In this document: positions 13,308 to 54,938 of the stretch, piece after piece
How the letters are laid out: each line of letters opens with the position of its first letter
Position numbering within the stretch: position 1 is the stretch's first letter
Origin: Acidimicrobiia bacterium
Lineage (GTDB): Bacteria > Actinomycetota > Acidimicrobiia > Spongiisociales > ZC4RG35
Assembly (NCBI GenBank): GCA_965248705.1
Contig: CBDFJY010000002.1
Coordinates: 1,322,980 to 1,386,979, forward strand
DNA: 64,000 nucleotides
Direction: 5' to 3'
Program-made: the position numbers and the translations under genes
The notes under the pieces: generated by a model
Database searches by the model: none
What the model was told of the DNA's origin: nothing
Seen by the model: only the letters and a program-made list of their open reading frames with translations

Positions 13308-14309
13308 TTGGAGGTCCCTATGGAAAGCGCTCTGCAGACCGAGCTCGAACTGGAGATTGATCATCCGAAGCAGGGTCGCGTAAAGACACCTGTTTACCTC
13401 ATCCAAGCTGGGATGACTGATAAAATTAGCCCTATCAGATCGCACCAAATCGAAGTTTCGCCTATTCCCGCGGTAAACGTCGCCTCGGTGCCGCAACGCA
13501 GTCCGCTCCGCTATCCAGGCGGCAAGACATGGCTGGTCCCTCATATCCGTGCTTGGCTCAGCAGCTTCTCCGAGAGGCCCAGGTTGCTGGTCGAACCCTT
13601 CGCCGGCGGGGGGATTGTTTCACTGACCGCCGTTATGGAAAATTTGGTTGAACGTTGTCTTATGGTTGAGCTGGATCGCGACGTGGCTGCCTTCTGGCAC
13701 GCAGCCCTGCGTAAAGGGGAGGAACTCGCTGAAAAGGTGTCATGCTTCACGCCCACGAGAGAAGCGGTGCACTTGCTGGCGAGCCGCGAGACACACGACA
13801 TCGTGGAACACGGTTTTCGCACCCTCGTGTTGAATCGGACCCGCCGGGGTGGCATTCTGGCTCCGGGCGCCTCGTTCAGCCGAGTGGGTGAAAACGGCAA
13901 AGGGCTTGCTTCTCGCTGGTATCCCGAAACGATCGTGAATCGCTTGCAGGAAATAACGAAACACGCCGACCGCATCAGCTTCTGTGAGACGGATGGCATG
14001 AAGATGCTGGAAGCTTTCTCGGGCGAACTTGGTGGTGGCGCAGCTGTTTTCGTGGATCCGCCTTACACCGCCGGGGGCAAACGGGCCGGCAAGCGATTGT
14101 ACGCGCACAGCGAAATAGACCACCCACTGCTCTTTGAGATGCTCGCCGAGAGTGGCGCCGATTTTCTTATGACATACGATCTCTCATACGAAGTCGCCGC
14201 CTTGGTGCAAAAGCACGGCTTCCATGCTGTCCAGGTGACCATGAAGAACACGCACCACGCCCGGATTCCTGAATTGGTGATCACCCCTCGACCTGTGTTT
14301 GGTCCATGA
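13308..14309 (+). CDS. DNA methyltransferase, Dam-like D12 class (N6-adenine type motifs)
   Basis: LRYPGGK, EPFAGGG (FxGxG SAM motif I) and FVDPPY (DPPY motif IV). The true start may be the internal ATG near 13413. Lower GC than the host. Confidence 0.8.
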   Translation: MEVPMESALQTELELEIDHPKQGRVKTPVYLIQAGMTDKISPIRSHQIEVSPIPAVNVASVPQRSPLRYPGGKTWLVPHIRAWLSSFSERPRLLVEPFAGGGIVSLTAVMENLVERCLMVELDRDVAAFWHAALRKGEELAEKVSCFTPTREAVHLLASRETHDIVEHGFRTLVLNRTRRGGILAPGASFSRVGENGKGLASRWYPETIVNRLQEITKHADRISFCETDGMKMLEAFSGELGGGAAVFVDPPYTAGGKRAGKRLYAHSEIDHPLLFEMLAESGADFLMTYDLSYEVAALVQKHGFHAVQVTMKNTHHARIPELVITPRPVFGP

Positions 14310-15184
14310 GCACCCGTTACGGGATCGCGGAATGGTATGGCCGCCTATTTTCAGAACTCTCTCCCGAAACCCGGCATACCCTGGCAAGGAAGGCGTTGCG
14401 AGAAGATCCAGAGGCTCCGCCCTGTCCGTTTCAGAAGAACAAACCTCCCTGCCGCAAGCGTGGCGGAGTGTGTTCCCTGCGCCGTTACCAAAGAGGTGAG
14501 AGTGATCGCATCGGCCTTCCCAAGGGCGATCCGGTCGTAGTGTGCCCTGCTCGATTTGAGGAAGGACAATTATTGGTCGAATGGCTCGCTGAGATTGTCG
14601 GTTTCTCATCGAGCGAGGCGAGGCTGGCCCGCGAAGTGCCTTTCATGCAGGGCACCAGCACCGGTAAACCGGCTGGGAAGATAGATTTGGTAGTGGCCAA
14701 GGCCTCCAACGGCGACCTCAAATGGTATGGCTTGGAGATCCAGGCTGTTTATTTCTCAGGCAGAGGAATGAACTCCGAGTATTTGGGTCTTCGAGATGAC
14801 GACTGTAAAGACCCGCCGTTTCCGGGAGCGGTTCGCCGGCCGGATTGGCGATCCTCAAGTGCAAAGCGCCTCATGCCACAGTTGCAGATCAAGGTACCAA
14901 CCCTCCGTCGGTGGGGATCGAAGCTAGCTGTAGCGGTGGATCGGCCTTTTTTCGATTCGATGGGAGGGCCGAGTTCTGCTCCAAGCAGTGATCTCAATGA
15001 TGGTGATATCGTGTGGATGGTCCCGAGGCTCCTACCCAACGACACGGGGGGCAACGCGTTGTCCCGTGGCCACTGGGAAGTTCTTACCTTGGAGGAATCC
15101 AGCAGGAGACTTCTTGCCGCGGAAACCATCCCGCGTCGCGCCTTCGAACAAACACTAAGAGAGAAGCTGGAGCCCATCGGCTAG
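14306..15184 (+). CDS. putative type II restriction endonuclease, NotI-family-like
   Basis: Its ATG overlaps the MTase TGA (ATGA). A Cys cluster PPCPFQKNKPPCRKRGGVCSL, then VVCPARFEE and YGLEIQAVYFSG, resemble the NotI motifs TGTCPFL..SCVK..RGVCVV, LVCPNRALD and YGVLEIQTMDFHG. The comparison is from memory. Confidence 0.5.
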   Translation: MSTRYGIAEWYGRLFSELSPETRHTLARKALREDPEAPPCPFQKNKPPCRKRGGVCSLRRYQRGESDRIGLPKGDPVVVCPARFEEGQLLVEWLAEIVGFSSSEARLAREVPFMQGTSTGKPAGKIDLVVAKASNGDLKWYGLEIQAVYFSGRGMNSEYLGLRDDDCKDPPFPGAVRRPDWRSSSAKRLMPQLQIKVPTLRRWGSKLAVAVDRPFFDSMGGPSSAPSSDLNDGDIVWMVPRLLPNDTGGNALSRGHWEVLTLEESSRRLLAAETIPRRAFEQTLREKLEPIG

Positions 15185-15340
15185 CTAGAGCCTTATGGCC
15201 TTTAGTGATCTGATTGCATATCGTGCAAAGAGCATGGCCGGTTCGTTTTTACAAAATACCTTATTGGTAAGGGAAAACCGCCAAGGGCGTGACGCAGCAA
15301 AGTTATGACCGAATATGGCCTCCGGGTCATGCGCTCGGGT

Positions 15341-15700
15341 TTAGAGGTCGGCTTTTTCGCGGGATTCTTCGTATTGGTGGAGGGCTACCAGGAACCCGAG
15401 GAAGAGCACGGCCGAGACCACGGTGAAGGTGATTGGGATGATCCGCACCTCGAAGGCGTTGAGTCCCTCGATGTTGGCCGGGCGGGGACCTCGGGGAGCG
15501 TAGAGGACGAAAAGCAGGCTGCCGATGGTCATCCAGGCCGAAATCCCGGCCCCGGTCACCAAGAAAGCCAGCTTCTTTCCCAGGTTGGTGTAGTTCAGTA
15601 GGTAGACGGTGCCGTAGAAAACCAGGATCGCCGTCACCAAGAGGATGATTCCGGTGACGAACAGATTGGCCGAAAGCAGGGATCGAAACAGTTCACGCAT
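15341..15700 (-). CDS. small integral membrane protein (3 predicted TM)
   Basis: Hydrophobic 119-aa ORF, last gene of the respiratory operon. Its 3' terminus is duplicated at 13150..13212. Confidence 0.5.
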   Translation of the reverse strand: MRELFRSLLSANLFVTGIILLVTAILVFYGTVYLLNYTNLGKKLAFLVTGAGISAWMTIGSLLFVLYAPRGPRPANIEGLNAFEVRIIPITFTVVSAVLFLGFLVALHQYEESREKADL

Positions 15701-15703
15701 AGC

Positions 15704-17410
15704 TCAGTTCCCCTTGCCGTTGAGGTTGCCTGCCCACAGGTAGTCCACCAGCAGATCCAGGTCGTCGGAGGAAAGCACCGCCCCGAAAGCGGGCATCTGC
15801 CCGTTCCCGAACCCGCTCACCCCGTAGGGCAGGTCGGCCACCGCCCCCACCAGCAGGAAGGAGCGAAGGTCTTCCTTGGCGATGAACTGCACTCGCGGTC
15901 TGCCCTTCCACACTGCCGGCCCGAACCCTCCCGAGCCTGGCTCGGAGGCATAGGGTGTCCCCGCTGACCAGCCGGAAGTGTGACAGCGCGCACAATAGCC
16001 GGTGAACACTCCAACCGCCCGGGTGGCCTGGTCCGTATCGCCGTCAAAAGCCGCGTCGGCCACTCCTTCCAGATCTATCTCCCACTTCCGCTCCATCTGG
16101 GCGTCCCGCAACTCTTCGAGGCCGGCGCGGGCGGGAACGAGCAGCCGCTCGGCGTTTTCGGTTCGCACCGACAGGTTTATCGCCGCGCTCGCCATACCGG
16201 AGACCGCGGTGGCGGCTGCCCGGTCGTCGGTGATCCCCCCGCCCGAGGAAGCCCGCTCAGGATCCAGGTTGACCACCATCAGGGTGTTGGGGCGGAGCGC
16301 TGTCCGGGCTATGGCCAGTTCGGCGGTGAGCACCCTTTCCAACCGGTCGGAGAGGCCGTCTCCATCCGAGTCTTCCTCGTCCTCGGCGTTAGCCGCCGTC
16401 TCGATAGAGGCAAGCCGCAACTGGAGAATCGGGGCCTGGGGCGCCATCGCCCGCAGGGTGGAGCGGGCAAGGTCGGCCACGGCGGCGTCGGGTCGCCCGT
16501 CCGTTGCGGGGTTTTGCGGATCGAAGGTCAAAGCTTCGATGTCGGTGAAGTCGAACAGGGCGGCGGCTGAGGCGGTTAGCTGGGAGATCGTCACCTCGGA
16601 GATATCCGACAGGTTGTCCCCGTCGCGGTCGATTCCCTGGTCCGAGAGTTCGAGGGTCCGGCGGGCGAGGACCACCAGTTCGGCCATGGTCTCGGCATGC
16701 CGTGGCGCCTGTTCTATATCGGCGATCAACTGCTGTTGCTCGATGATGGCCCTTTCCAGCGACTGGTCGGCGTTCTCCAGAAGGCTCAGCTGGTTCACGA
16801 CCATGCCGTCGGTTTTGCGAAGGGTCTCCTGTTGGGAGATTTGGATGCTCTCCAGGTAGTTGACGATGTCAAAGATCTGCTGTTCGTTCATGGGCCCCCC
16901 TCCCACGGTGCCCCAGGGGGGCATGGGGGAGTTGCCCCGCCCGTATGTAATCCAATAGGTGATGATGTCGCGGTCGTAACGCAGGAAGACGTCATCGAGA
17001 GCCGGCGCCGACCAGGACACGTTCACCCCGGTCCGCTTCTCCACATAGCTGGCCACTCCCCCCACTCCGCTAGGGCCGTGACAGCTCCAGCAGTCGGCAT
17101 CGTCAGGTCCCACCAACTCGGCGCCCCGTTCCACCGACTCCTCGTGGAACTGATCGACGAAGCTGAGTTGACGATCGGTCTCACTCAGGTAGTAAACCGC
17201 CAGTCCGACCGCCAGGAAGGCGGAGAGCAGAACTGCGCCCTGTTGGATGCGCTCCAGCCGGCGGGTCTCCAAAGCGTCGTCGGTGACCCCCGGCGCCTGG
17301 TTGGGAGGTATTCCTTCCCGGCGACGGGATCGAAGCGCGGCCACTCCCAAAAAAGAGAGCCAGATCACCGCTCCCACGACGACCAGGGTTATTACCAGCG
17401 AAGAGTCCAT
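15704..17410 (-). CDS. membrane-anchored diheme cytochrome c with a large acidic insertion
   Basis: Two CxxCH motifs (CWSCH near the N-terminus, CARCH near the C-terminus). Each has a downstream Met ligand context (MPPWG, MPAFG). Two N-terminal TM helices. A roughly 300-aa Asp/Glu-rich insert carries DRDGDNLSD and DSDGDGLSD motifs. Confidence 0.8.
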   Translation of the reverse strand: MDSSLVITLVVVGAVIWLSFLGVAALRSRRREGIPPNQAPGVTDDALETRRLERIQQGAVLLSAFLAVGLAVYYLSETDRQLSFVDQFHEESVERGAELVGPDDADCWSCHGPSGVGGVASYVEKRTGVNVSWSAPALDDVFLRYDRDIITYWITYGRGNSPMPPWGTVGGGPMNEQQIFDIVNYLESIQISQQETLRKTDGMVVNQLSLLENADQSLERAIIEQQQLIADIEQAPRHAETMAELVVLARRTLELSDQGIDRDGDNLSDISEVTISQLTASAAALFDFTDIEALTFDPQNPATDGRPDAAVADLARSTLRAMAPQAPILQLRLASIETAANAEDEEDSDGDGLSDRLERVLTAELAIARTALRPNTLMVVNLDPERASSGGGITDDRAAATAVSGMASAAINLSVRTENAERLLVPARAGLEELRDAQMERKWEIDLEGVADAAFDGDTDQATRAVGVFTGYCARCHTSGWSAGTPYASEPGSGGFGPAVWKGRPRVQFIAKEDLRSFLLVGAVADLPYGVSGFGNGQMPAFGAVLSSDDLDLLVDYLWAGNLNGKGN

Positions 17411-17420
17411 GACATTCCTC

Positions 17421-18287
17421 CTATATGCAGGAGGGGCCTTGCGGATAGGATACGGATTGGGCGATGGCCCGGGGGGTTTCCACGATCATTCCGGTTCTGA
17501 TGACCAACCGTCCTTCCTCGGTGACGTTGACCGCGAATCGGTCGAGATTCCGGGGGGCGGGACCGGCGAAATACTCTCCGATCGAGTTGTACTTGGATCC
17601 GTGGCAGGGGCATTCGAAACCTTGGGAGTCGTTGCACCAGGGCACCCGACATCCCAGGTGGACGCAGCGCTGATAGAGGGCCATCAGCCCACCGGCGACC
17701 ACGTCTCTGTCCGCGAATTGCTGGCTCATCTCGGTGGGCGCCGGGACTACATAGGCGCGGGCGTCGGGGATGAAAGCCGGGGTGACCAGGCCGGCGCTGT
17801 CGGTCATCGCCGGTACCAGGTCGGCGGCGAGTCCGGCGTCCACATCGCTCCCGAAGCCTCCGGTTATTTTGGGCCACAAAAAGGCCAGGATCTCTATCCC
17901 CATGATGCCAAACCACGCGACCGACATGGCGGCCAGGGACCGGTTGAAGAACTGCCGGCGGGTGACCCCCACCTCCTCGGGGGAGGCTTCCACGATCACC
18001 TGAGATTCGGTGATGGGCGCCAGCGCCTCCATCACCTCGACCGGGGCCTCTTCTTCCGCAACGGCCGGGGCTTCGGCCTCCGACGGCTCCGTGTCCACAG
18101 AGGTTTCCAGCACCAAATCCATGGAGGGAGCGGAACGGTCGGCCTTCCGGGCGCGGCGTTCTACCCGCTTGGGCCAGAGAGAGGCCGAGTCGGGATCCGC
18201 GCGGCGGAAGGCGATGGTGAAGGCGCCAATCGCGGCGGCGATGGCCACCGCCGCCACCCCGATGATGATCAGCTCGACGCTGTCCAT
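17421..18287 (-). CDS. Rieske [2Fe-2S] iron-sulfur protein
   Basis: CVHLGC..CPCHGS Rieske boxes. An internal twin-arginine-like TRRQFF sits ahead of the hydrophobic anchor. There is an extra N-terminal TM and an acidic extension. Confidence 0.85.
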
Positions 18288-18309
18288 CAGACCATCAGAC
18301 TATTCGACA

Positions 18310-19182
18310 TCAGTGGCCCCCAAAGTCGACCCAGTCTTTCAGGTCATCGAAAAATATCCCGTCCACCCACGGGTAGGCAAAGTTGAATCCCGGCCCCCGG
18401 AACAGCACTCCCAGGATGGTGAGGGTGGCTGCTCCGGCCAGGAAGATGGTGAACATCATGATGGCCAGTTTGCGGTCGGAGGGGCGGGTGGAGGGGTTGC
18501 GGTCTATATAGGGAATCATCATGAATCCCACCAGCCCGATCACGGTCGGCACCGTGACTCCGGCGATTTGGGGGTCAAAATAGGAGAGCATCTCCTGGAG
18601 ACCCAGGAAATACCAGGGTGCCTTGGAAGGGTTGGGGGTGGCATTGAAGTTGGCCGATTCCAGGAGGGGCGCCTGGAGGATGACCGAGAGAACCAGGAGA
18701 AAGGCGGTCATCGCCAAAAGGGCGGTGAACTCGGTGATCATCAGATGCGGCCAGGTGTTTACCTTGTCGGTGGGGTCGGCCTTTACCTGTTGGATGGCTC
18801 GGGCCTTGACCACGGTGAGCAGTCGCTGATGGCGGACTCCCTCGGGCAGGTCGGTGGGTGGGACCGAGGGACGAACCGAGACCGAAGCCGCCAATCGTCC
18901 GTTCCCGGCGCCGTTTTCCCCACTCGCCGGGGCGGCTGTGACGGCCGGGGTGATTACCGGAGCGGGCTCGGGCGGCGGGGGAGCGGGGGGAGTCTCGGAG
19001 ACGGATGGCGGGGGGGCGGTGGGAACCATGCGGGGGGCGGGCACCACGACCTTCTCTGCGGCTATTTCGGTGACCGGGGCCTCTCCGCGCATCTCGGCCA
19101 GAACCTGTTCAACCGGCAGGCCCAATGCCTTGGCCTTGGCTTCGGCGGACCGTCTCAACAGTTCTTCAGGGATTTGTGGCAC
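18310..19182 (-). CDS. cytochrome b C-terminal-domain protein (b6f subunit IV / PetD-like) with a Pro-rich N-terminal extension
   Basis: WPHLMITEF.., ..APWYFLGLQEMLSYF.. (the PEWY-type motif) and ..IMMFTIF... The first 130 aa are Pro/Ala-rich low complexity. Confidence 0.7.
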   Translation of the reverse strand: MPQIPEELLRRSAEAKAKALGLPVEQVLAEMRGEAPVTEIAAEKVVVPAPRMVPTAPPPSVSETPPAPPPPEPAPVITPAVTAAPASGENGAGNGRLAASVSVRPSVPPTDLPEGVRHQRLLTVVKARAIQQVKADPTDKVNTWPHLMITEFTALLAMTAFLLVLSVILQAPLLESANFNATPNPSKAPWYFLGLQEMLSYFDPQIAGVTVPTVIGLVGFMMIPYIDRNPSTRPSDRKLAIMMFTIFLAGAATLTILGVLFRGPGFNFAYPWVDGIFFDDLKDWVDFGGH

Positions 19183-19201
19183 TAGTGCTCACCTCGCATG
19201 T

Positions 19202-19990
19202 TCAGAGAGGCCCGGAGATGCCGCCGTCTTTGCGGACTCTCCAAAAGTGGACCGCCAGGAATATCACGATGATGAACGGCAGAAAGAGAACATGAAGCAC
19301 ATACCATCGCAAAAGTGTCCCCGCCGTTACCTCCACCCCGCCCAATAGGGCGAATTTCACCTGCGCGCCTATCACAGGAACGAACCCGGCCATGTTGGTG
19401 CCCACCGTCACCGCCCACAGAGCCAACTGGTCCCAGGGAAGCAGATAGCCGGTGAAGGAGAGGAGCAAGGTCAGGAGCAGCAGGATGACTCCCACCACCC
19501 AGTTGAACTCGCGGGGAGGCTTGTAAGCCCCGTGGTAGAAAACCCTGGACATGTGGAGAAACACGGTTAGCACCATCAGATGGGCGCCCCAGCGGTGCAT
19601 ATTCCTCATCAGGGAGCCAAAGGCGATGTCGGTGGAGAGCGCCTGCACATCGATGTAGGCCCGTTCCGCGGTGGGGGCGTAGTAGAACATCAGGAAAATG
19701 CCGGTCACGGTCAGGAGAATGAAGAGGAAAAAGCTCATCCCTCCCAGACAAAGCGTGTAGGAGAGCTTGACGCCGTGTCGCTTCACCTTCACCGGATGGA
19801 GGTGATAGAGCACGTTGTTCATGATCACATAGGAGCGGTTGCGGGGAGTGTCGGTGTAGCCCTTTTTGAAGGGAGAGCCGGGTCGCAGCATCGAATCCAT
19901 GAACTGGCCCGACCAGACTCGTCCCATCAACCCCGACACTGAGGTGCGGGCTTTGGTCAGAAGGCCTTGTCTGCCGTTTTGGTTGCTCAC
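19202..19990 (-). CDS. cytochrome b6-type (N-terminal heme-binding half of a split cytochrome b)
   Basis: ..YHLHPVKV.., ..[17 protein letters not shown].. and ..LPWDQL..WA..V.. show the characteristic b-heme His pairs on helices B and D. Confidence 0.85.
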
Positions 19991-19999
19991 CCTTACTCC

Positions 20000-20449
20000 T
20001 TACCAACGCATTCCATAGGTATAGCCGTGTTTGAAGTCCCTTTGGCCGGTGTCCACCTCCCAGGGCGCCGCGTTGAGGCCCATCTCCTCGGCCTGGGCGG
20101 CCAGGGACCCCTCGAACTTGCCCAGGGAGATGACCCCGGTGGGGCAGCGATCGATGCACAGGGCGCAGCGGGTGCACTCGTTTTCGTCGACCACGAAGAA
20201 ACCGTAATTGGTGACGTCTTCCCGTGGGTCATCGACGTTGACCGCTTCGTCGATGGCGTCCATAGAGAGATAGAAGATGCACTTCCACGGGCAGATGTCC
20301 ACGCAGCCCTCGCAAATGATGCACTCGGACTGATCGATGTGGAGAAACTGCTTGGGGCGAATCTTGCCCAGGTAGAAGTCGTTTTCCACCAGGGCGAGCT
20401 GGTAGTCGTCTCGAAAGGGCGGGGTCTCATCTACAACTCCGCGGGGCAT
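20000..20449 (-). CDS. 2[4Fe-4S] ferredoxin-like protein
   Basis: Two CxxCxxCxxxCP motifs: CIICEGCVDICP and CTRCALCIDRCP. Confidence 0.8.
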   Translation of the reverse strand: MPRGVVDETPPFRDDYQLALVENDFYLGKIRPKQFLHIDQSECIICEGCVDICPWKCIFYLSMDAIDEAVNVDDPREDVTNYGFFVVDENECTRCALCIDRCPTGVISLGKFEGSLAAQAEEMGLNAAPWEVDTGQRDFKHGYTYGMRW

Positions 20450-20450
20450 C

Positions 20451-21083
20451 TCAGCGGTCTCCCTTCACCAGCGGTCGGCCGTACGGGGACAACTGGACGG
20501 GGGGAGTGGGCTTCTTCTTGGGCGACTTGTATAGCTGCTGCAGTTGGTAGGCGAAAAAACCGGCGGCGCCCAAGGCCACCATGTTGTAGGTTGCCGAGAT
20601 GATGTCTTTGATGGCGCCCCAGCTTATCGCCACCTCGTTGCCCAGCATCAGCAACGGTGGAATGTTGAGTGCGATTCTCTGTCCCGACCAGTCGAGATCG
20701 GTCTGGGAGAGGTTGAGCCATTCGGAAGGGACGATCCCGAATATCATTACCAGTTCCATCCAGACCAAAAAGGCGGCGAAAGCGGCTCTCGCCCAGGTCA
20801 TTTTCTGGTTGAGCACCCACAGGAAGGCGGCGCCCGCCAACATCATCTGGGAGGCGGCCAGGGCTCCGAGGTAGCCGAGGCTCTTCCAGAACCAGCCCCG
20901 TGGTATCCAGTTGAAGAAGTCCACCACCAGGGTCGTGGAGACCCCGTTGACGATCTCGGTCTCCGGCAGCTTGGAATAGTGAATCCAGATCACCGCCACG
21001 GTCATGAGGGCGGCACCCATCAACAGCGACGACCACCCTATGAGGATCCTTTTTTGCTGGTCTAAAGAGCCGATGCGATGCAT
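20451..21083 (-). CDS. integral membrane protein, first gene of the cytochrome operon
   Basis: 210-aa Trp-rich polytopic ORF. Its stop abuts the ferredoxin start. No family recognised. Confidence 0.45.
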   Translation of the reverse strand: MHRIGSLDQQKRILIGWSSLLMGAALMTVAVIWIHYSKLPETEIVNGVSTTLVVDFFNWIPRGWFWKSLGYLGALAASQMMLAGAAFLWVLNQKMTWARAAFAAFLVWMELVMIFGIVPSEWLNLSQTDLDWSGQRIALNIPPLLMLGNEVAISWGAIKDIISATYNMVALGAAGFFAYQLQQLYKSPKKKPTPPVQLSPYGRPLVKGDR

Positions 21084-21222
21084 CTGTACCAGATGGCCTT
21101 CCAGAGTCGAACCACTCCTATTTTTACACCGGAGCGGGTCTCAAACAAAGTTCTAACGCCTTTCTTCTTCACAAAGCCGACCATACGCCCTGAACGCCCC
21201 CGCGCCAAGGTGGGTTTGGAAC

Positions 21223-22770
21223 TTGCTATCTTTTGGAGCGGCTCTCATAGCTAACCTTTCCTTTTCCGGGGGTAGCGCTCTGAGTACAACCAAGAATAAT
21301 CAAGTCGGACATCCGAAAAATCGAGTCGGACGTTACGCGGCCTGGTCGGACGCGCTGGGTCCTGACGCCGCGGCCAAATGGCACATCATCATCTCCACCG
21401 CCTTTTTGGCGGTGGCCGGGATCGTATGGGTGGTAGGGATGGTGGAGCTGCGCTTCTCCGGAACGCTGACCGGGCCTTTCTCGTACGGGCGCATCCGCCC
21501 GATCGCCCTGTTGCTGGCCGTGGTGGGCTGGCTGACCCTGTCGCTGGCCGGTGGGGCCTACTACATTCTGCCCCGGCTCACCGGAACCCGGATGCGCAGC
21601 GAAGGCTTGGCGTTGGCGGGTGGGGTGGGAACGGCGCTGGTGACGGTGGTGGGAGCGGCGGTGGTGTTGTTGGGCGGAGGAGACGGGACCGGCCCTTTTT
21701 CTCTTCCCTGGTGGGTCTCTTTTCCGCTGCTCGCCACCCTTCTGGCGCCGATGGTGGTGACCGTCTCCACGGTTCGCCATCGACAAGAACCCAACATCTA
21801 CGTTTCTTTGTGGTATGCCCTGGCCGGGGTGGTTTGGCTTCCTCTCCTCTACCTGGTGGGCGCGCTTCCCGCACCCTCAGCCTTGGGGAGCGCCCTCTCC
21901 GGGTCGATATCTCTCTTCGGGCTCTCCAACCTGTGGGTGGTGGGAATGGGAGTCGGGCTTGCCTACTACGCCCTGGTGAAGGAGACGGGCAACCCCCTGG
22001 CCAGCCGACAGTTGGCGAGAGTGGGATTCTGGTCTCTGGCCTTTGCCTCGGCGTGGGCGGGATCCGCCCCCTTGGTTTTCGGTCCCATTCCCGGCTGGCT
22101 GGAGGCGGTGGCATTCCTGATGACGCTGGCGCTTCCTGTCTCGGCGCTGGCCAACGCCGCCAACCTCGCTTTGACCACCGACCAGTTCTGGGCGGAAAGG
22201 AAAGAGCGTCCGGTGGTGGCCGCGGCCTTGGCGGGCGTCTTTTTTGCTTTGATGACGGCGGCTCTAACCAGCTTTGGAACCATCCGCTCGGCGGCGGCGG
22301 TGGTGGGACTCACCCCCTTCTGGGACGGGGTGCTCTATGCCACCCTGTTCGGCGCGGGAGGCCTCCTGGTGGCTGCCTGGTCCTATCAGGCGCTGCCGTC
22401 GATCATCGGGCGGAAGCTGGCGGGGGTGAGGCTCGCCCGTCTTCATCTGCGTCTCACCTTCTGGGGAGTGGGTTTGACTTCCGCGCTGCTGGTGGGGGCC
22501 GGCTTGGTTTCGGGCTATAGCTGGGCGGGGGGTTCCTACAGTGGCATAAGTCCCACGGGCGAAGGCTGGGGGAGCCTGGTGGGCATGTCCTCGCTGATGG
22601 TGGGGTTGTCCATACTGTCGGGCCTGTTGACCCTGGTGGGCCAGCTCTCTTTCTGTTTGGCCATTGCCAGGACCTTTACCTCCGGACCCGCGTCCACCCA
22701 GGAGATATTCACTTTGGTTGCTGCTGATCGGTCGCCCGATTCCGAAGCTGAGGAAGAGGAAGAGGAATGA
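21223..22770 (+). CDS. polytopic membrane protein resembling heme-copper oxidase subunit I (CcoN-like) but lacking canonical His ligands
   Basis: At least 12 hydrophobic helices. ..FSYGRIRPIALLLAVVGW..GGAYYILPRLTG.. parallels the CcoN FGRLRPLHTNAV..YYVVQR region, with His replaced by Ala. There are only 4 His in 515 aa. The C-terminal tail is acidic (EAEEEEEE). It precedes a CcoO-like gene with overlapping stop and start. Confidence 0.4.
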   Translation: MLSFGAALIANLSFSGGSALSTTKNNQVGHPKNRVGRYAAWSDALGPDAAAKWHIIISTAFLAVAGIVWVVGMVELRFSGTLTGPFSYGRIRPIALLLAVVGWLTLSLAGGAYYILPRLTGTRMRSEGLALAGGVGTALVTVVGAAVVLLGGGDGTGPFSLPWWVSFPLLATLLAPMVVTVSTVRHRQEPNIYVSLWYALAGVVWLPLLYLVGALPAPSALGSALSGSISLFGLSNLWVVGMGVGLAYYALVKETGNPLASRQLARVGFWSLAFASAWAGSAPLVFGPIPGWLEAVAFLMTLALPVSALANAANLALTTDQFWAERKERPVVAAALAGVFFALMTAALTSFGTIRSAAAVVGLTPFWDGVLYATLFGAGGLLVAAWSYQALPSIIGRKLAGVRLARLHLRLTFWGVGLTSALLVGAGLVSGYSWAGGSYSGISPTGEGWGSLVGMSSLMVGLSILSGLLTLVGQLSFCLAIARTFTSGPASTQEIFTLVAADRSPDSEAEEEEEE

Positions 22771-23729
22771 GCGAGATACTGGAAGCGGCCGCTCGCGCCG
22801 TGGGCGCCCCCGCCGAGTTGGTGCAGCGCTCCGCCGAAGCGCGCGCCGGCGCCAGCGGCGTCTCTGTCGAAGAAGTTCTGACCGCCTGGGCGGGAGGTGG
22901 AGTGGCGCCCCCCTCCGTTCCACCCGCGGCTCCCGTTCCACCCGCGGCTCCGGCGCCTGCCGCGGCTCCCGTTCCACCCGCGGCTCCGGCGCCTGCCGCG
23001 GCTCCCGTTCCACCCGCGGCTCCGGCGCCTGCCGCGGCTCCCGTTCCACCCGCGGCTCCGGCGCCTGCCGCGGCCCCCGCTCCTGCCGTACCATTTCCCC
23101 CGCCTGTGGCCCCTCCAGTCGCAGCGCCGCCTGCCGCAACCCCCGCACCCCAGCCGTCGCCCGCGCTTGGCGCCGCGCCGTCGGCGCCTACCGCCCCTGT
23201 CGCCCCTGCGAGGCCCGCCCTGGTCACGCCCGGGGTCGCGGCGGGCCCGCCCCCGGTGCTGAAAGGTCGGGTGGATCGGCCGTTCCGGTATCTGTTCGGC
23301 GCCACTGCCCTGTTGATCCTGTGCTTGGGCGCCACTCTGGTGGTCCCCGCCCTTTCGGAAACGGGCCGGGGAGCACTCCACTCCGAGATCCCCTTCACCG
23401 CGCCGGCGCGGGCGGGAAAAGAGATATATCTGGCGGAGGGATGTGCGGGCTGTCACACCCAGATGGTCCGTCCCATCGTCGCCGACGCCCAACTGGCCGC
23501 TCTGGCCGGGGTGGGCGGGGTTACCCTGTCCGACACCAATCAGGTGATCGGCCGCCAGCGTTACGGTCCCGACTTGGCCAACGTGGGCAGTCGGATGTCC
23601 CCCGAGGACATCGAGGCGGTGCTTTCCGGCGAGGGAGACCATCTTTCCTACCGGGGCGACTGGACTGATTCCCTGGTGGCATACCTGGTGGAGTCGCGAG
23701 TTTTGACCGAGGACGGATCCAGTGAGTGA
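22767..23729 (+). CDS. CcoO/FixO-like monoheme cytochrome c with an N-terminal cytoplasmic domain and Pro/Ala repeat linker
   Basis: [34 protein letters not shown] closely follows the CcoO signature (G.x.Y..GC..CHSQM.RP..GPDL..VGGRYS). One TM ([20 protein letters not shown]) lies upstream of the heme domain. Confidence 0.6.
22914..23075. repeat. perfect 36-bp tandem repeat, 4 copies plus a partial copy, in frame ([12 protein letters not shown])n
   Basis: cccgttccacccgcggctccggcgcctgccgcggct repeated head-to-tail at 22932, 22968, 23004 and 23040. The last copy has one substitution. Confidence 0.9.
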
Positions 23730-24729
23730 GAATTTGGCGAGAGCGGCCCAGGCCATGGGTGCGCCGGAGGTTTTGGTGCAACGCTCGGCCGAAGCCCGGT
23801 CCCAGGCAAGCGGGGTCCCCGTCGAAGAAATTCTGGCGGCCTGGGCGGGTGGTGGCTCGGCGCCGACGGCCTCCTCCGCGGCTCCGGCTGGCGCTCCCGA
23901 TCCCGTACCTCCCCCGGCCCCAACCCAACCAGCCGCGCCGCCGCCCGTGGTTACCGCGCCTGTGGTTACCCCGCCCGCGGCTCCGAGGCCGGTGTCCCCC
24001 TCACCCGCTCCGGCGGCCCCGGTCGTGGCGCCGCCTCTTCCTCCTCCCTCGGAGGTGAGCACCAAGGAAGCGATTTCCTTCCCGGTGGTGGTGTCGGTGC
24101 CCACCGCCCGCCTGACGGAGAGAACCTCATCCACCCTTCCCCGCTGGCTCGCCGCTCTCTTCCTGGTCGTTCCGGTGATAGGTCTGCTCTATCTGGCGGG
24201 AAACTCCGCCCGGGCGGGATGTGTGGAGGGGGGAGTGGAGTTGGCTGTCAACCGGATCAACTCCACGGTGGTCAACTGCGACGGCAGCGAGTTCACCGGT
24301 CGCGCCGACCAATCGGCGGGGATTTTCCTGGTGATGGGGGAAACGATTTTCGAAACTTGTGCCGGATGTCATGGGGCCACCGGTGAAGGGGGAGTGGGGC
24401 CGGCGCTCGCCACCGTGCTCTCCACTTTTTCGGCTTGCGCGGCCCACATCGAGTGGGTGACCCTGGCCACCGGCGGCTTTCAGAACGCCGGAGAAACCAC
24501 CTACGGAGATTTGGCCAAATCGGTGGGCGGCGGGGGCTTCATGCCCGGATTCGCGACCAGTAACAGCCCCGAAGAGATTGCTTCGGTGGTCTCCTTCGAG
24601 CGGATCCGCTTCGGCGGGGCTGATCCCGATCAAACGCTGATGGAGTGTGGATTGGTAGAGGGCGACACGGGTGAGAGTGACACGGGAGAAGGCGAGGCGC
24701 CTCCCGCGGAGGAGGAAGGAAGCGAATGA
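23722..24729 (+). CDS. membrane-anchored c-type cytochrome (CxxCH) paralogous in its N-terminus to 22767..23729
   Basis: CAGCHGATGEGGVGPAL (class I cytochrome c). The N-terminal 45 aa, [45 protein letters not shown], are about 70% identical to the N-terminus of the preceding protein. A Pro/Ala linker and one TM follow. Confidence 0.6.
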   Translation: MSENLARAAQAMGAPEVLVQRSAEARSQASGVPVEEILAAWAGGGSAPTASSAAPAGAPDPVPPPAPTQPAAPPPVVTAPVVTPPAAPRPVSPSPAPAAPVVAPPLPPPSEVSTKEAISFPVVVSVPTARLTERTSSTLPRWLAALFLVVPVIGLLYLAGNSARAGCVEGGVELAVNRINSTVVNCDGSEFTGRADQSAGIFLVMGETIFETCAGCHGATGEGGVGPALATVLSTFSACAAHIEWVTLATGGFQNAGETTYGDLAKSVGGGGFMPGFATSNSPEEIASVVSFERIRFGGADPDQTLMECGLVEGDTGESDTGEGEAPPAEEEGSE

Positions 24730-25123: not shown

Positions 25124-25966
25124 TCATCGTTGTGGCGGCGGTGGTGCAACTGTGGGGATTGGTGTTCTCTCCATGACCACCGCCATTCCCTCGGCGAGGG
25201 AAAGCCGGTCACAAGCCCGCCCTCCCCTCATTGCCAAGGCCAAAAGTCCCGCCGAGTCGATGTGGATCAGCAAATCGCCCTCTCCAACTTGGGCGTAGGC
25301 CGCCGCTCTCCGAATCCGGTGGACGGATGCGCCCACCCGCACAGTCAGCTCTGAGCAGTCCTCCAAGCCGGCGGCTTCCAGATCACCAGGAGAGATGTTG
25401 GTTTGGACGTTGCCGTAGGTGTCCACCCACCAGGCCGCTCCGCTCACCCGCCCGGTGCTCACCTCGGGCAGGGGCAGCAGCAGGGGGGTTACCTCGTGGG
25501 GGCCAATCGGAGGGCCCAACTCGGAGAGCCGGACTTCTCCCGCGGCCAGGGCCGCCGCCGCCGGAGCGAAGACGTCCCGTCCCCAGAAGGTGTCTCCGGC
25601 GCCCGGCAGACGATATTCGAGGTTTTCGATGGAGACCATCCGCTGGGCGCCTCCCACCATAGCGACTGCCGGCGAGAGGAGACCGTTGTCAGGCCCGACG
25701 AAGGCCATTTCGGAGGTTTCGACCGCCAAGGCCCGCCGGTCGGTTCCCACCCCGGGATCCACCACCGCCAACACCACCCCGGCGGGCAGGTACTGGACGG
25801 CGCGGAGAAGCGATAGGGCGCCGGCCCGCACGTCTCCGGGAGCGATCCGGTGATTGATGTCGATTACCCGTGATTGGGGAGCAATCCGGGCAATTACCCC
25901 GTGAACCACCCCCACGAACTCGTCATCGGTTCCAAAATCGGAGAGAAAGCTGATGGGAAGGCTCAT
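25124..25966 (-). CDS. SAM hydroxide adenosyltransferase family protein (DUF62, fluorinase/chlorinase-like SAM hydrolase)
   Basis: N-terminal ISFLSDFGTDDEFVGVVHGVI matches the conserved (T/S)DFGxxDxYVG start of DUF62 proteins. Confidence 0.7.
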   Translation of the reverse strand: MSLPISFLSDFGTDDEFVGVVHGVIARIAPQSRVIDINHRIAPGDVRAGALSLLRAVQYLPAGVVLAVVDPGVGTDRRALAVETSEMAFVGPDNGLLSPAVAMVGGAQRMVSIENLEYRLPGAGDTFWGRDVFAPAAAALAAGEVRLSELGPPIGPHEVTPLLLPLPEVSTGRVSGAAWWVDTYGNVQTNISPGDLEAAGLEDCSELTVRVGASVHRIRRAAAYAQVGEGDLLIHIDSAGLLALAMRGGRACDRLSLAEGMAVVMERTPIPTVAPPPPQR

Positions 25967-26342: not shown

Positions 26343-27389
26343 TTAGGAGGGGGGTGCTTCGCTTGATGGCGGCGGGTTTTCAAGTAGTCGGTATAGCTGT
26401 CGGGCGATGTACCGTTTGAGGCAGCGGCGGGTTTCTCGGGTGGTTTTGCCTTGGCTGGTGCGTTTGGTGATGTAGGCGCGGGTTTTGGGACAGTATCGGG
26501 CGCGGCTGATGGCGATGGTGTGGATGGCTTGGTTGAGTTGGCGGTCACCGCGTCGGTTCAGCCGGTGGCGGGTGTGTTGTCCCGATGAGGCTTCCAAGGG
26601 GGCTACGCCGGCTAGCCGAGCGAAGGCTGCTTCGTTGCGGCAGCGGCGAGGATGGGACCAGGCAATGAACACTTGGGCGGCTGTGATGGGGCCGATCCCG
26701 GGTTGTTGGAGCAGTTGGGGAGCTACGGTTTGGACTAGTTCGGTGATAGTTGTTTTGAGTTGGGCTGCTTCGGTGGTGAGTGCATTGATTCGCCGGGCGA
26801 GGGAACGCATGGCCTGTTTGGTGGCGGTGTGTTCGTTGGCCGGTGCTGATGTGAGTCGAAACCTGTGGCATTTAGCGACCAGAGCAGCAGTGGTAACACC
26901 TCGGAGTTGGTCTCTGAGATCGACTGGCGCGGTCACTAGGAGAGCTTTCAGTTCGTTGATCGCCGATGTTCTAGCTGTTATTGCGCCTCGTCGGGTGGTT
27001 TCCAACACTCGTAAGGCTTCTCGGTCTCCCCGAACTCGCGGTACAGAAGGTCGGAAGCGGCCCAGCGCCTGGCGGGCGGCCCGGCGAGCGTCCAGGGCAT
27101 CGGTCTTGGCGCCGTCGCCGCTGGGGGTGGGATCGTTGAACTCGGTCACCAGTTCCCCACTAGCGACCAAATAGGAGGTCACACCAGCTCCGTAACTGCC
27201 TGTGCCTTCCACAGACCATACCCGATCGGCGGCCTGGGTGTATTGGTCTACCCACTTCAACAACCGCTTGTATCCCAGCCCGCTGGTCTCGAACACCGCA
27301 GACGCCTGTTCTCCGGTGGTGGCGGTGTCCACTACCGACGCGGTGACCCGGTCACGATCCGGGTCGATCCCGATCACATGTTCTACCAA
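26343..27389 (-). mobile_element. IS110-family transposase gene (copy 1)
   Basis: ..HVIGIDPDRDRVTASVV.. DEDD N-terminal domain. C-terminal ..EASSGQHTRHRLNRRGDRQLNQAIHTIAISRAR.. is the Transposase_20-like region. The ATG-defined ORF extends to 27560, but the conserved core begins near 27389. Confidence 0.75.
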
Positions 27390-27474
27390 TGAGGCCAACA
27401 CAACAACCTTCTTTCCTTGTTTGCTACCTGGTTTGTCCAAGGAGGTGCGATCCGAACGGCAGGACTGTGATGAG

Positions 27475-28649
27475 TCACACCCCTTTGGGGTGGACAGGCT
27501 TCTGATCAGGCCAGCGCGGTACGCCAGGTCGGCGCTGGTGGTCAATGTCGGACAGATCATAGGAAAGACACCAAACCGGGTCAGTCAAATTGAGGGTCAC
27601 GACATCAATTCCAGCACCGTACCTGATAGCCTCCAAGGGCACCCGCCATATTCTCACAGTCAAATTGGGGGGGGGGGGTTGGAGGTGTTTGTAGACGCGG
27701 TTGGAGATGTGGCGTTTGAGGTTGCGGATGGCTTCTTTGGGGGTTTTGCCTCGGGCGAGTTGTTTTTGGTAGTAGCGGTGTCCTTCGCTGCCGGGTTGGG
27801 AGATTTGGGTGAGGGCTGCGGTGTAGAGGGCTTGGTTGATGCGGCGGTTTCCTCCTCGGTTGAGTCGATGGCGTGTTATGCGTCCCGAGCTGGCTTCCAG
27901 TGGTGCGGTGTCGTTGGCCATGGCAAATTTGGCTTTGGTGGGGTAGTGGGCGGGGTTCCCGACCTGGGCGATGATCTCGGCGGCGGTGAGGTTGCCGATG
28001 CCGTGGATGTGGGTGAGGGTGGCGCCGGTGGTTTTGACCACCGTGGTGATCTGTTGGGTGAGTTCTTGGATCTGTCGGCTCAGGGAGCGTATGTGGCGGG
28101 TTCTTTGTTTGGCGATCCGGGCGCGGGTGGTGGTGTCACGGGCGAGCATTCGTGTCACGCGGTCAACAGCGGACGGGTTGGTGAGAGCGGTGGGAAGTTT
28201 GGGATGATCGCCGCGCAGTTGGGTGAGATCGGCGTGGAGCCGGTTGATCTGGCGGGTGCGGGTTTCGACCAGTTCACGGCGGTATCCGACCAAAAGCCGC
28301 AGGTCTTCTGTGATACCGTCGGGGCGGCTACCCGGGCGATTAACAAAGCGTCAGTGGAATCGTTCTTGACAGGCGTGCGTTGTCTCCGCCGTTGCCTACT
28401 GGTCATCTGTGGTGGTACTTCCACCACCTCGATACCCGCTTCCACAAGCGCCAAAGCCGCGGGACGTCCGTAATGACCGGACCCTTCGATAGCTACCCGC
28501 CCGGCGCCGGTTTCCCGCGCCCAGGCCACCAACCGGGCACGACCCCCGGAGGTGTTAGGGACACAACGGGTCCCGACCTGGCGCAGGGCCTGGTCGATAA
28601 CACAGCCCATCAAAGTATCCTTGTGCGAGTCGATTCCAATAACAAACAT
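27475..28649 (-). pseudogene. IS110-family transposase (copy 2), split by a frameshift
   Basis: The N-terminal frame reads MFVIGIDSHKDTLMGCVI..ALLIARVAAP and runs to junk after about 28300. The C-terminal frame reads ..LLVGYRRELVETRTRQINRLHADL..EASSGRITRHRLNRGGNRRINQALY... A single-nucleotide shift near the gccgcccc run at about 28300 would join them. The C-terminus reads through a C12 tract (PPPP). Confidence 0.7.
27667..27678. repeat. G12 homopolymer tract
   Basis: caaattgggggggggggggttggagg. It encodes PPPP on the minus strand inside the IS110 copy 2 C-terminus. With 11 G the frame would stop two codons later (..PPPPI*), which resembles the copy 1 C-terminus. Confidence 0.9.
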
Positions 28650-52654: not shown

Positions 52655-53680
52655 ATGAGCACCAAGCTGACCCGGTTCAGTCACGGCGCCGGCTGAGGCT
52701 GCAAGCTCGGATCAGCCGAGCTGGCGCAGGTTCTGCGCCCCTTGCAGGGTCATCCCGCCTATTCCTCCCCCCATCTGCTAGTGGGGGTGGATACCCGTGA
52801 CGATGCAGGCGTATATCGCCTGTCGGATGGACGCGTCCTCATCCAGACGGTCGATTTTTTCACTCCGGTGGTGGATAGCCCCGAGGATTGGGGGCGGATT
52901 GCCGCCGCCAACGCTTTGTCCGATATCTACGCCATGGGCGGGACGCCGCTCACTGCTCTCCAGTTGGTGTGCTGGCCAGCACAATCCCTATCACTGGAGA
53001 TCCTGACAACGGTTGTCCGGGGAGGAGCGGAGGTGATGGCTCGAGCGGGATGCACGGTGGTGGGCGGCCACTCCGTTGACGATCCTGAGCCAAAATACGG
53101 GTTCGCGGTGACCGGGATCGCTACGGAGGTGACCACCAACTCCGGCGCCCGACCGGGCGATCGGCTAGTGCTAACCAAGCCGCTCGGAACCGGGATCATC
53201 ACCACCGCCCACAAAGCGGGTGATTGCCCCCCGTCCTCCCTGGATGCGGCGGTGGAGGCAATGATCTCCCTCAACGACCGAGCTTCTCGGGCGATGATCT
53301 CGGTCGGAGTTTCCGCCGCCACCGATGTCACCGGCTACGGATTGGCGGGCCACCTCCTTTCCATGCTGGACGCCTCGGAGGCGGCGGCCCGGATAGAGAC
53401 CGCCCGGCTGCCGCTCCTGGCGGGGGCCGAACAAATCCTGGCCGCCGGATTCTATCCGGGGGGAAGCCTTCGCAATCTGGAGGCGGCCGGCGACCGGCTC
53501 CGGGGCGGAAACGAGATGTCCCGACGTCTGGTGTGCGACGCGCAGACCAGCGGGGGACTGCTGATGTCGGTTCACCCATCCAAGCTGGCCGAACTCAAGG
53601 GCAGGCTCAAAGAAGAAGGCGTGCGCGGGACGGTGATTGGAGCGGTGGTGGAGGGTAAACCTTCGGTGGAGCTGTTCTAG
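52655..53680 (+). CDS. selD: selenide, water dikinase SelD, selenocysteine-containing (in-frame TGA at 52694..52696)
   Basis: Manual translation from the ATG at 52655 gives MSTKLTRFSHGAG-U-GCKLGSAELAQVL..LLVGVDTRDDAGVY..VDFFTPVVD..GRIAAANALSDIYAMGG. This aligns position-for-position with the E. coli SelD N-terminus (..YSHGAGCGCKISPKVL..LLVGNETRDDAAVY..), with the TGA at the Cys17 position. The ORF track's 52742 start would delete the catalytic loop. Confidence 0.85.
52705..52721 (+). promoter_or_regulatory. SECIS-like hairpin 11 nt downstream of the selD UGA
   Basis: Perfect stem gctcgg / ccgagc with loop atcag, extendable to agctcgg/ccgagct. This is the expected position for a bacterial SECIS. 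Confidence 0.55.
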
Positions 53681-54852: not shown

Positions 54853-54938
54853 CGGTCAGGCGTTGGCACCGTGTCGGCTGGCCGACCGGTTGCCGCGGTT
54901 TCACGGGGCCTGATCCCTCCACCGCTCTGGATGAGCGT
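54848..54938 (-). ncRNA. SAM-I (S-box) riboswitch candidate in the metX leader
   Basis: Minus-strand RNA: ACGCUCAUCCAGAGCGGUGGAGGGAUCAGGCCCCGUGAAACCGCGGCAACCGGUCGGCCAGCCGACACGGUGCCAACGCCUGACCGAUGAG. It matches the SAM-I consensus CUUAUCAAGAGNGGNGGAGGGANNGGCCCNAUGAANCCCGGCAACC..GGUGCNAANUCC..AGAUGAG. The P1 arms are CUCAUC/GAUGAG. The P4 hairpin is reduced to about 5 nt. Confidence 0.65.

Follow-up and report, generated by a model that had tools for sequence, protein, structure and literature searches.

A b6-type Rieske/cytochrome b operon of Acidimicrobiia that includes a conserved gene for a dicluster ferredoxin, a predicted cytoplasmic-side subunit

The 'APWY clade' of Kao and Hunte (2014; PMC4122944) is marked by a split, CxGG-bearing cytochrome b together with an APWY motif; these authors placed the split cytochromes b of Actinobacteria either in this clade or in a PEWY-cytochrome c clade. 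Their survey included Ilumatobacter, the sole acidimicrobial genome then available, and they noted that the APWY clade was still without a characterised member; Dibrova et al. name the corresponding group subfamily G. In anammox bacteria, an n-side NAD(P) oxidoreductase is a subunit of two Rieske/cytochrome b complexes (Kuenenia Kuste4569-4574 and Kustd1480-1485). AlphaFold 3 (AF3) models of these complexes place a chain of Fe-S clusters beside hemes bn and cn, and predict an extra heme b to which each cytochrome b monomer contributes one histidine ligand. Both a split APWY-type cytochrome b in Acidimicrobiia (since 2014) and proposals that such complexes carry Fe-S subunits on the cytoplasmic side are already known. 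Here, we analyze a 64,000-nucleotide stretch of DNA from an Acidimicrobiia bacterium (assembly GCA_965248705.1, contig CBDFJY010000002.1, positions 1,322,980 to 1,386,979 of the forward strand; G+C ~62%), hereafter the window, in which a ferredoxin gene lies inside an operon for a Rieske protein and a b6-type cytochrome b. On balance, and with modest confidence, we interpret its seven genes as a single operon that encodes a b6c-type menaquinol:cytochrome c oxidoreductase with a bound ferredoxin on the n-side.

Gene families were assigned by Pfam and NCBIfam profile searches, and transmembrane (TM) helices by a hydropathy scan. The seven open reading frames occupy positions 15341-21083 of the minus strand, exactly where a preliminary description of the window, made from the letters alone, had listed them. 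From first to last they are:

20451-21083, minus strand: o210, membrane protein of 210 aa, four TM helices; opens the operon
20000-20449, minus strand: 2[4Fe-4S] ferredoxin, 149 aa; Pfam Fer4
19202-19990, minus strand: cytochrome b6, 262 aa, four TM helices; Pfam Cytochrome_B
18310-19182, minus strand: subunit IV, 290 aa, three TM helices; Pfam Cytochrom_B_C
17421-18287, minus strand: Rieske [2Fe-2S] protein, 288 aa, two TM helices; Pfam Rieske
15704-17410, minus strand: diheme cytochrome c, 568 aa, membrane-anchored; Pfam Cytochrom_C and Cytochrome_CBB3
15341-15700, minus strand: o119, 119-aa protein with three TM helices; last gene of the operon
15279-15294, minus strand: weak terminator-like hairpin, 47 nt past the o119 stop codon; score at chance level
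21084-21222: divergent intergenic region of 139 bp between o210 and a CcoN-like gene

The gaps between consecutive genes are 1, 9, 19, 22, 10, and 3 nt, and Shine-Dalgarno-like sequences precede most of the genes. Terminator-like sites in the window did not exceed their frequency in shuffled sequence, and the gaps between the seven genes are free of them; the hairpin at 15279-15294 may, tentatively, mark the end of the operon. The divergent region presumably holds the promoters of both operons that flank it, although a sigma-70 promoter scan of this region returned no consensus. A Rex operator was likewise not matched there at up to three mismatches, and Rex matches across the window were below the number expected by chance. 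The ferredoxin gene is separated from o210 by 1 nt and from the cytochrome b6 gene by 9 nt, and it adjoins b6 in all 88 loci that we examined (see below), which argues against a separately transcribed ferredoxin unit.

The cytochrome b of this operon is split and b6-like. In comparisons with solved structures, the b6 protein scored 167 bits against cyanobacterial and chloroplast b6, versus 79-84 bits against actinobacterial QcrB, and with the NCBIfam QcrB model it reached 113 of the 500 bits that the cutoff requires. Its four predicted ligands of hemes bp and bn (His132, His146, His233, and His248) align with b6 His86/100/187/202 of 1vf5_A and are invariant in 80/80 b6 sequences. A CxGG segment (TLC81LGG) that aligns with FYC35LGG of 1vf5_A is present in 79 of 80, and Cys81 is predicted to be the attachment site of covalent heme cn (ci). 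The protein ends in GISGPL, as does b6 of 1vf5_A; the stop follows [10 protein letters not shown], a natural b6 C-terminus, and subunit IV starts separately after a 19-nt gap that includes a Shine-Dalgarno-like sequence. The Cytochrome_B and Cytochrom_B_C matches fall on separate proteins with four and three TM helices, and the same split is found in 70+ independent assemblies. Subunit IV aligns with PetD (1q90_D) and has APWY at the PEWY position. The surrounding KAPWYF is invariant (74/74), as is Glu151 (74/74), and Glu151-Phe152 occupies the heme-cn-facing position. Judged by sequence, then, this cytochrome b appears to belong with the 'APWY clade'/subfamily G rather than with actinobacterial QcrCAB. 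The preliminary description had already set the split cytochrome b apart from QcrCAB, and in this it was right. It had also called such proteins typical of Firmicutes, heliobacteria, and b6f complexes; they are, however, not confined to these, since split heme-cn cytochromes b of groups A1/A2, the 'APWY clade', and 'subfamily G' are also listed for Planctomycetes, Chloroflexi, Deltaproteobacteria, Rubrobacteridae, and Ilumatobacter (PMC3509893, PMC4122944, PMC5600118).

Both halves of the cytochrome b carry N-terminal extensions. That of b6 is conserved, basic, and ~55 aa long, and it carries [12 protein letters not shown]. Residues 1-83 of the protein contain 13 K/R and only 2 D/E, and residues 36-78 are nearly invariant. 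An LYHLHP segment just before helix A, with His63 and His65, is conserved in the family. The extension of subunit IV, which the preliminary description had correctly noted as ~130 aa long and Pro-rich, comprises a conserved tag of ~40 aa and, after it, a Pro/Ala-rich linker. We also noted that b6 passes the equivalog cutoff of the NCBIfam model ExtP, its best NCBIfam model (307.9 bits, cutoff 290), and that subunit IV weakly matches ExtQ (58 bits, cutoff 150). The passing of the ExtP cutoff is a likely source of systematic misannotation in genomes of Actinomycetota.

The remaining membrane components also match their first portrayal. The Rieske protein has an extra N-terminal TM helix and an acidic linker, then an internal Tat motif (RRQFF) and another TM helix, behind which lies the cluster domain. 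Its cluster-binding boxes CVHLGC and CPCHGSKY (with Ser231 and Tyr233) and the RRQFF motif are invariant in 70/70 sequences. It scored 33 bits against the NCBIfam QcrA model (cutoff 275), and its best match among solved structures is 9rk4_A, the Kuste4569 protein of an anammox Rieske/cytochrome b complex. The 568-aa cytochrome c has two cytochrome c domains with heme motifs CWSCH (residues 107-111) and CARCH (473-477), which are separated by an acidic periplasmic insertion of ~270 aa. No PDB chain was matched by its sequence, hence it has no detectable similarity to solved QcrC either. Two conserved DxDxDxxxDxxE loops in the insertion (residues ~259-272, with D261/263/265/269/E272, and ~347-358, with D347/349/351/E358) look like calcium-binding loops; the shorter cytochromes c of distant lineages have no acidic insertion. 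Neither o210 nor o119 matched a Pfam or NCBIfam family. The C-terminal tail of o210 is basic and includes an invariant SPYGRPL, and o119 has an APRGPRP loop; counterparts of o119 in distant lineages share the same frame and carry a periplasmic insertion of 130-220 aa.

The ferredoxin has two CxxCxxCxxxCP motifs with a long insert in between. All eight cluster cysteines are invariant in the family alignment, and the N- and C-terminal tails are likewise invariant or highly conserved. It is therefore a single dicluster ferredoxin with conserved tails and not the 'polyferredoxin' of the preliminary description. The protein is strongly acidic (27 D/E versus 13 K/R, net charge ~ -14). Neither inspection of the sequence nor the hydropathy scan revealed a signal peptide, Tat motif, TM helix, or other hydrophobic segment in it, which places the ferredoxin in the cytoplasm. 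Public annotations label its homologues 'NADH-quinone oxidoreductase subunit I', 'PreA', or 'ferredoxin'. We ruled out that it is NuoI, as it scored 37.8 bits against the NuoI model TIGR01971 (cutoff 113) and no nuo genes adjoin it in the window or in any locus examined. A ninth cysteine, Cys57, lies four residues past the last ligand of cluster I (C53-P-W-x-C57, CPWxC). The stand-alone ferredoxins have it without exception, also in lineages of 33-39% identity, and the fused domain of a GltD-type protein described below (locus L089) lacks it.

Conservation of the operon was assessed in 83 Acidimicrobiia loci, and adjacency of the ferredoxin in 88 loci, which include distant lineages (among L084-L088). 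In all 83 Acidimicrobiia loci the detectable genes are colinear, on one strand, and in identical order. The ferredoxin and b6 are the best-conserved products of the operon, with median identities to the window of 81% and 82%; those of the others are 74% (subunit IV), 72% (o119), 55% (Rieske), 54% (o210), and 48% (diheme cytochrome c). Close homologues of the ferredoxin number >2000 (72-95% identity), and the gene occurs in at least 560 GTDB species-representative genomes. Of the best 80 matches, nearly all are labelled Acidimicrobiia or bear labels that are generic or evidently mis-binned, and all named homologues are from Acidimicrobiia or from unclassified metagenome-assembled genomes of Actinomycetota. 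A search of 1.84 billion cluster representatives returned one full-length family member and several distant groups of 33-39% identity that are labelled only 'Actinomycetota bacterium'. In four of these distant groups the order is the same, with the ferredoxin between a small membrane protein and cytochrome b6-subunit IV-Rieske-cytochrome c-membrane protein, and the first and last genes are recognisable homologues of o210 and o119. Retained in the distant operons are Cx[14 protein letters not shown] and, in b6, the segment LYHLHPxKxKRH. They adjoin cytochrome c maturation genes and COX1-like or COX2/CtaA/CtaB genes; those of L084, L087, and L088 lie beside Ccm or ResB/CcsA/DsbD genes.

Apart from its own family, of which truncated or frameshifted copies also matched, many of the strongest matches of the ferredoxin are the C-terminal dicluster domains of 550-616-aa GltD-like NAD(P) oxidoreductases, which also carry Fer4_20 and Pyr_redox_2 domains. 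The two are 33-36% identical and share the same long inter-motif insert. Three of the four GltD-like proteins with readable contigs are encoded in Rieske/cytochrome b operons: directly upstream of cytochrome b6, i.e. in the position of the window's ferredoxin (L089); after subunit IV (L091); and before a Rieske protein and a fused cytochrome b (L092). The two anammox complexes with an NAD(P) oxidoreductase have been described with this architecture. The cytochromes b of these operons are 56-64% identical to that of the window. The HLHP histidines recur in L089 and L092, and the L092 protein lacks the heme-cn cysteine. We therefore regard the ferredoxin as equivalent to the membrane-proximal ferredoxin domain of GltD-like subunits from related operons, those of anammox bacteria among them, but as a protein that stands by itself. 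A soluble-type ferredoxin in a bc-type operon had been singled out as unusual. The ferredoxin is indeed there, but for an Fe-S protein in such operons the GltD-like NAD(P) oxidoreductase of anammox complexes provides a precedent.

From the gene content, motifs, synteny, and homologies we infer the following mode of action. The core would consist of the split b6 and subunit IV with hemes bp and bn and covalent heme cn; the Rieske protein would be inserted by the Tat system, and the membrane-anchored diheme cytochrome c would be the acceptor on the p-side. The ferredoxin would be a bound n-side subunit held by o210, a candidate membrane anchor or partner, and by the basic N-terminal extension of b6, whose residues 1-83 are complementary in charge to the acidic ferredoxin. 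Its two clusters would connect hemes bn/cn with redox partners in the cytoplasm, so that the ferredoxin probably constitutes an additional electron port on this side. The HLHP histidines (His63/His65) are candidate ligands of an extra interfacial heme, a lead taken from the anammox models, and such a heme may lie on the path from the clusters to bn/cn.

For the direction of electron flow, we tentatively put forward an input mode, which is quite possible but which we hold with less confidence than the presence of a bound ferredoxin. Reduced soluble ferredoxin or a ferredoxin-linked dehydrogenase would deliver electrons via the clusters and hemes cn/bn to menaquinone at Qn, i.e. the complex would have a built-in ferredoxin:menaquinone reductase activity that feeds the Q cycle. 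We favor input because the neighbourhoods, with genes for oxidase biogenesis and cytochrome c maturation, suggest a housekeeping respiratory complex of probable heterotrophs, and such a complex could not divert half of its electron flux to ferredoxin. The serious alternative, to which we assign a lower probability, is an output mode. Quinol oxidation at Qp would push a low-potential electron to the ferredoxin in a bifurcating manner, as proposed for anammox. In Kuste4569 and other Rieske proteins, the Ser and Tyr of the cluster-binding box raise the potential to about +300 mV, and cultured Acidimicrobiia use menaquinone-9 (MK-9). With MK-9 and a high-potential Rieske protein, the low-potential chain could be very negative, which permits either direction.

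Several points weigh against the reading of a bound ferredoxin that feeds electrons in. The Ser/Tyr Rieske protein in combination with menaquinone fits bifurcating output at least as well as input, and the direction of flow is not readable from sequence. The putative binding of the ferredoxin to the complex is likewise deduced from sequence, and a structure of the ferredoxin modelled with AlphaFold 2 (AF2) on an alignment of 15 sequences was unusable, with a predicted local distance difference test score (pLDDT) of 40. Between His63/His65 and their putative counterparts, the heme-ligating His43/His62 of Kuenenia, the His-to-Arg spacing differs by 16 residues. Apparent natural fusions of o210, ferredoxin, and b6 turned out to be frameshifted reads with out-of-frame stretches and were discarded, although these reads still display the same gene order. 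Lastly, the heme-cn complexes of Firmicutes, heliobacteria, and cyanobacteria work without such a ferredoxin subunit, hence the ferredoxin is not required for b6-type function in general.

To the same conserved island belongs a second operon, 21223-24729, which is transcribed divergently from o210 (80/80 loci) and which the preliminary description had overlooked. Its genes, and the copies of a tag that it shares with subunit IV, are:

21223-22770, plus strand: CcoN/COX1-like protein, 515 aa, ~10-12 TM helices (10 in the hydropathy scan); Pfam COX1, 96.7 bits
22767-23729, plus strand: FixO/CcoO-like monoheme cytochrome c (CAGCH) with tag, Pro/Ala-rich linker, and one TM helix; FixO, 48.8 bits
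23722-24729, plus strand: monoheme cytochrome c (CAGCH) with tag, Pro/Ala-rich linker, and one TM helix
19063-19182 (minus strand), 22767-22901 (plus strand), 23722-23856 (plus strand): shared tag copies; a Pro/Ala-rich linker and then a TM helix come after each

The CcoN-like protein matched CcoN of cbb3 oxidases in the PDB (E = 7e-20) and scored 109 bits against the ccoN model, whose cutoff is 583. It contains only four histidines in 515 aa, and of these only H54 is conserved. Heme-copper oxidases of the cbb3 type bind heme b, heme b3, and CuB with six histidines and have a cross-linked tyrosine; all seven are replaced in the CcoN-like protein (A, F, S, A, P, V, and Y in the window), as they are in L001, L003, L084, L087, and six further loci. 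Since 72 positions are nevertheless conserved at ≥90%, the protein is best viewed as a maintained cofactor-less scaffold ('pseudo-CcoN') and not as an oxidase. The CAGCH motif of the FixO-like protein is conserved. The tag, ..L..RSAEA[KR]A.A.G.PVE[EQ]VLA.., spans ~40 aa at the N-termini of subunit IV, the CcoO-like protein, and the third cytochrome c. The 64-kb window contains exactly three copies of it, and 56/83 loci have three each; in L003, one protein has two tandem copies. No tag was found in the distant lineages. Searches of the tags against Pfam at E-values up to 10 gave nothing meaningful, and we do not claim a resemblance to PSBD/HeH domains that is visible by eye only. The sole explanation that we can offer is that pseudo-CcoN and the tag may have a structural or recruiting role.

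Extending this, the ten genes of the island might encode a new respiratory supercomplex of aerobic Actinomycetota, a rather improbable scenario in our judgment. Here the gap between menaquinol and a high-potential Rieske protein would drive a low-potential electron across the membrane into the bound ferredoxin by Rieske/b6 bifurcation, and pseudo-CcoN and the tagged subunits would organise the complex or recruit a soluble flavoprotein in place of the GltD module.

Two explanations deny the ferredoxin of the b6c-type complex a catalytic role, and we regard both as unlikely. The ferredoxin and o210 could together be a maturation factor that supplies n-side reducing power for heme cn attachment, analogous to the CCB system, or for Fe-S or heme insertion. 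The ferredoxin always co-occurs with a CxGG cytochrome b6 in operons of Actinomycetota, the location of the L084, L087, and L088 operons beside cytochrome c biogenesis genes (Ccm or ResB/CcsA/DsbD) would suit such a role, and no CCB-type Pfam family is encoded in the operon. However, the homologous domain is fused to a GltD-like NAD(P) oxidoreductase, an architecture that suits electron transfer; L092 has the Fe-S module yet no CxGG cysteine; the ferredoxin is conserved as strongly as catalytic b6; and Firmicutes and heliobacteria are established to attach heme cn without such a gene. Alternatively, and with a similarly small probability, the ferredoxin could be a regulatory or sensing subunit whose O2-, NO-, or redox-labile clusters gate the complex without carrying catalytic flux. 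The extra invariant cysteine beside cluster I, the respiratory context, and the Rex-like regulator genes that adjoin the operon in L003 and L088 are compatible with sensing, but both clusters are fully canonical CxxCxxCxxxCP, the fold is related to wires of the NuoI/FwdF type, the ferredoxin is homologous to the electron-wire domain of the GltD-like subunits, and we saw no sensor-type motif in it.

It is highly improbable that the ferredoxin and o210 are unrelated passengers on a shared transcript, e.g. a housekeeping ferredoxin or a misannotated NuoI. Public annotations do name the homologues as NuoI-type, 'PreA', or 'ferredoxin', but the NuoI score is far below the cutoff and there are no nuo neighbours, the 88/88 adjacency extends to lineages down to 33% identity, and a GltD-fused homologue occupies the same gene position in L089. 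A mis-split fused QcrCAB or a sequencing frameshift, for which there are only weak, sub-threshold matches to QcrA and QcrB models, is already refuted by the stop after GISGPL, the separate Shine-Dalgarno sequence and start of subunit IV, the 70+ assemblies, and the QcrB score of 113 against 500.

Directly downstream of the end of the seven-gene operon, the window has a D12-class adenine methyltransferase and a NotI-family restriction endonuclease (13308-15184, plus strand). In the close relatives L001 and L002, a gene for a solute-binding protein (Peripla_BP_6) lies between the operon and methyltransferase/restriction-type genes, of which only L002 has the NotI family, hence the downstream flank is variable. 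Rex-like regulator genes (Put_DNA-bind_N and CoA_binding) lie directly downstream of the operon in L003 (12868-13497, minus strand) and L088 (12829-13491, minus strand). An S-adenosylmethionine (SAM) hydroxide adenosyltransferase gene is found near the island in the window (25124-25966, minus strand), L001 (2594-3812), the more distant L003 (13534-14728), and also L002; this gene and a glutaredoxin-like gene recur near the island, which suggests a wider conserved neighbourhood. An IS110-family transposase (DEDD_Tnp_IS110 and Transposase_20; 26343-27560, minus strand) is located ~1.6 kb past the neighbourhood of the divergent operon. Elsewhere in the window, a SAM-I riboswitch (Rfam RF00162, 71.9 bits; 54846-54937, minus strand) lies directly upstream of an open reading frame of 391 aa (53677-54852, minus strand).

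In literature searches with incomplete coverage of subscription journals, whose negative outcome is therefore weak evidence, we came across no account of a ferredoxin as a subunit of actinobacterial Rieske/cytochrome b complexes. Nor, with the same coverage, did we find anything on the o210 and o119 companions, on how widely the operon is spread in Actinomycetota, on CcoN homologues without ligands, or on the tag of the three subunits. The operon bears on two wider questions: the purpose of heme cn and the direct exchange of electrons between ferredoxin and a b6-type complex (the ferredoxin:quinone reductase, or 'FQR', problem of cyclic electron flow), and whether Rieske/cytochrome b complexes with cytoplasmic Fe-S subunits bifurcate to low-potential acceptors, as proposed for anammox. 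It would represent a minimal, hard-wired version of such a system, a b6 core plus a dicluster ferredoxin, in at least 560 species-level genomes. Among the cultured members of the class are aerobic, non-phototrophic bacteria, for instance Ilumatobacter, for which a split cytochrome b has been recorded; if cultured members carry the operon, it would be far easier to study there than in anammox enrichments or thylakoids. Judged from the loci examined, a large part of Actinomycetota appears to depart from the textbook QcrCAB design. The island also holds traps for annotation, as rules of the PGAP style would call b6 'ExtP' and the ligand-less CcoN homologue a cbb3 oxidase.

Compared with actinobacterial QcrCAB, the operon shares a menaquinone-using host from the Actinomycetota, a diheme cytochrome c as acceptor, and a Rieske protein with extra N-terminal TM helix(es) and an internal Tat motif. 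By contrast, its cytochrome b is split and b6-like, its Rieske protein has two TM helices where QcrA has three, and a ferredoxin is present. The Rieske gene follows those for cytochrome b (b6-IV-Rieske-c), as had been pointed out in the preliminary description, whereas the canonical order is qcrC-qcrA-qcrB. The selenite/tellurite cluster extHIJKLMNOPQS of Geobacter, with ExtOPQ, resembles the operon in that b6 passes ExtP and subunit IV weakly matches ExtQ. Neither the window nor the loci contain the Ext multiheme cytochromes, porin, or rhodanese (the extH-N and extS context), and with these parts absent the name 'ExtP' would be a misannotation here. We also rejected the Ext cluster as a precedent for the ferredoxin, because ExtM of Geobacter is a 12-heme cytochrome and not a ferredoxin.

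The best PDB and NCBIfam matches of the ferredoxin itself are modules of the NuoI/NdhI, PsaC, and FwdF type, protein-bound electron wires at membrane complexes, with which it shares the two CxxCxxCxxxCP motifs and the long insert. It differs from them in scores far below their cutoffs, in its unique tails, and in its partner, a Rieske/cytochrome b complex. With b6f and the firmicute and heliobacterial b6c complexes (QcrABC/PetCBDA), the operon has in common the split site, the four histidines, the heme-cn cysteine, and GISGPL, and among solved structures its b6 is most similar to b6. For b6f, there is a long-standing idea that heme cn exchanges electrons with ferredoxin on the n-side. Unlike these complexes, the operon has APWY instead of PEWY or PDWY, N-terminal extensions on b6 (~55 aa, basic and conserved) and subunit IV (~130 aa), the order b6-IV-Rieske-c, and a dedicated ferredoxin gene. 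It lacks cytochrome f and the small Pet subunits of b6f, and its partner is a separate 568-aa diheme cytochrome c rather than cytochrome f, a cytochrome c fused to subunit IV, or a monoheme cytochrome c.

The closest parallels lie with the APWY clade/subfamily G, with which the operon shares the APWY Qo motif and a short, CxGG-bearing cytochrome b. Part of that clade has a large NAD(P)-binding Fe-S oxidoreductase, whereas the window operon has only the 149-aa ferredoxin. Anammox-type complexes likewise combine a split b6-type cytochrome b with CxGG, APWY, a Ser/Tyr Rieske protein, HLHP before helix A, and an Fe-S protein encoded beside cytochrome b. The window operon, however, retains the dicluster module alone, with no Fer4_20, FAD, or NAD(P) domain; its subunit IV has three TM helices and not five; and its p-side partner is a diheme class-I cytochrome c in place of multiheme cytochromes or hydroxylamine oxidoreductase (HAO). 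The hosts differ as well, being probably aerobic, menaquinone-using Actinomycetota on the one side and anaerobic autotrophs on the other, and the window operon adds two conserved membrane subunits, o210 and o119.

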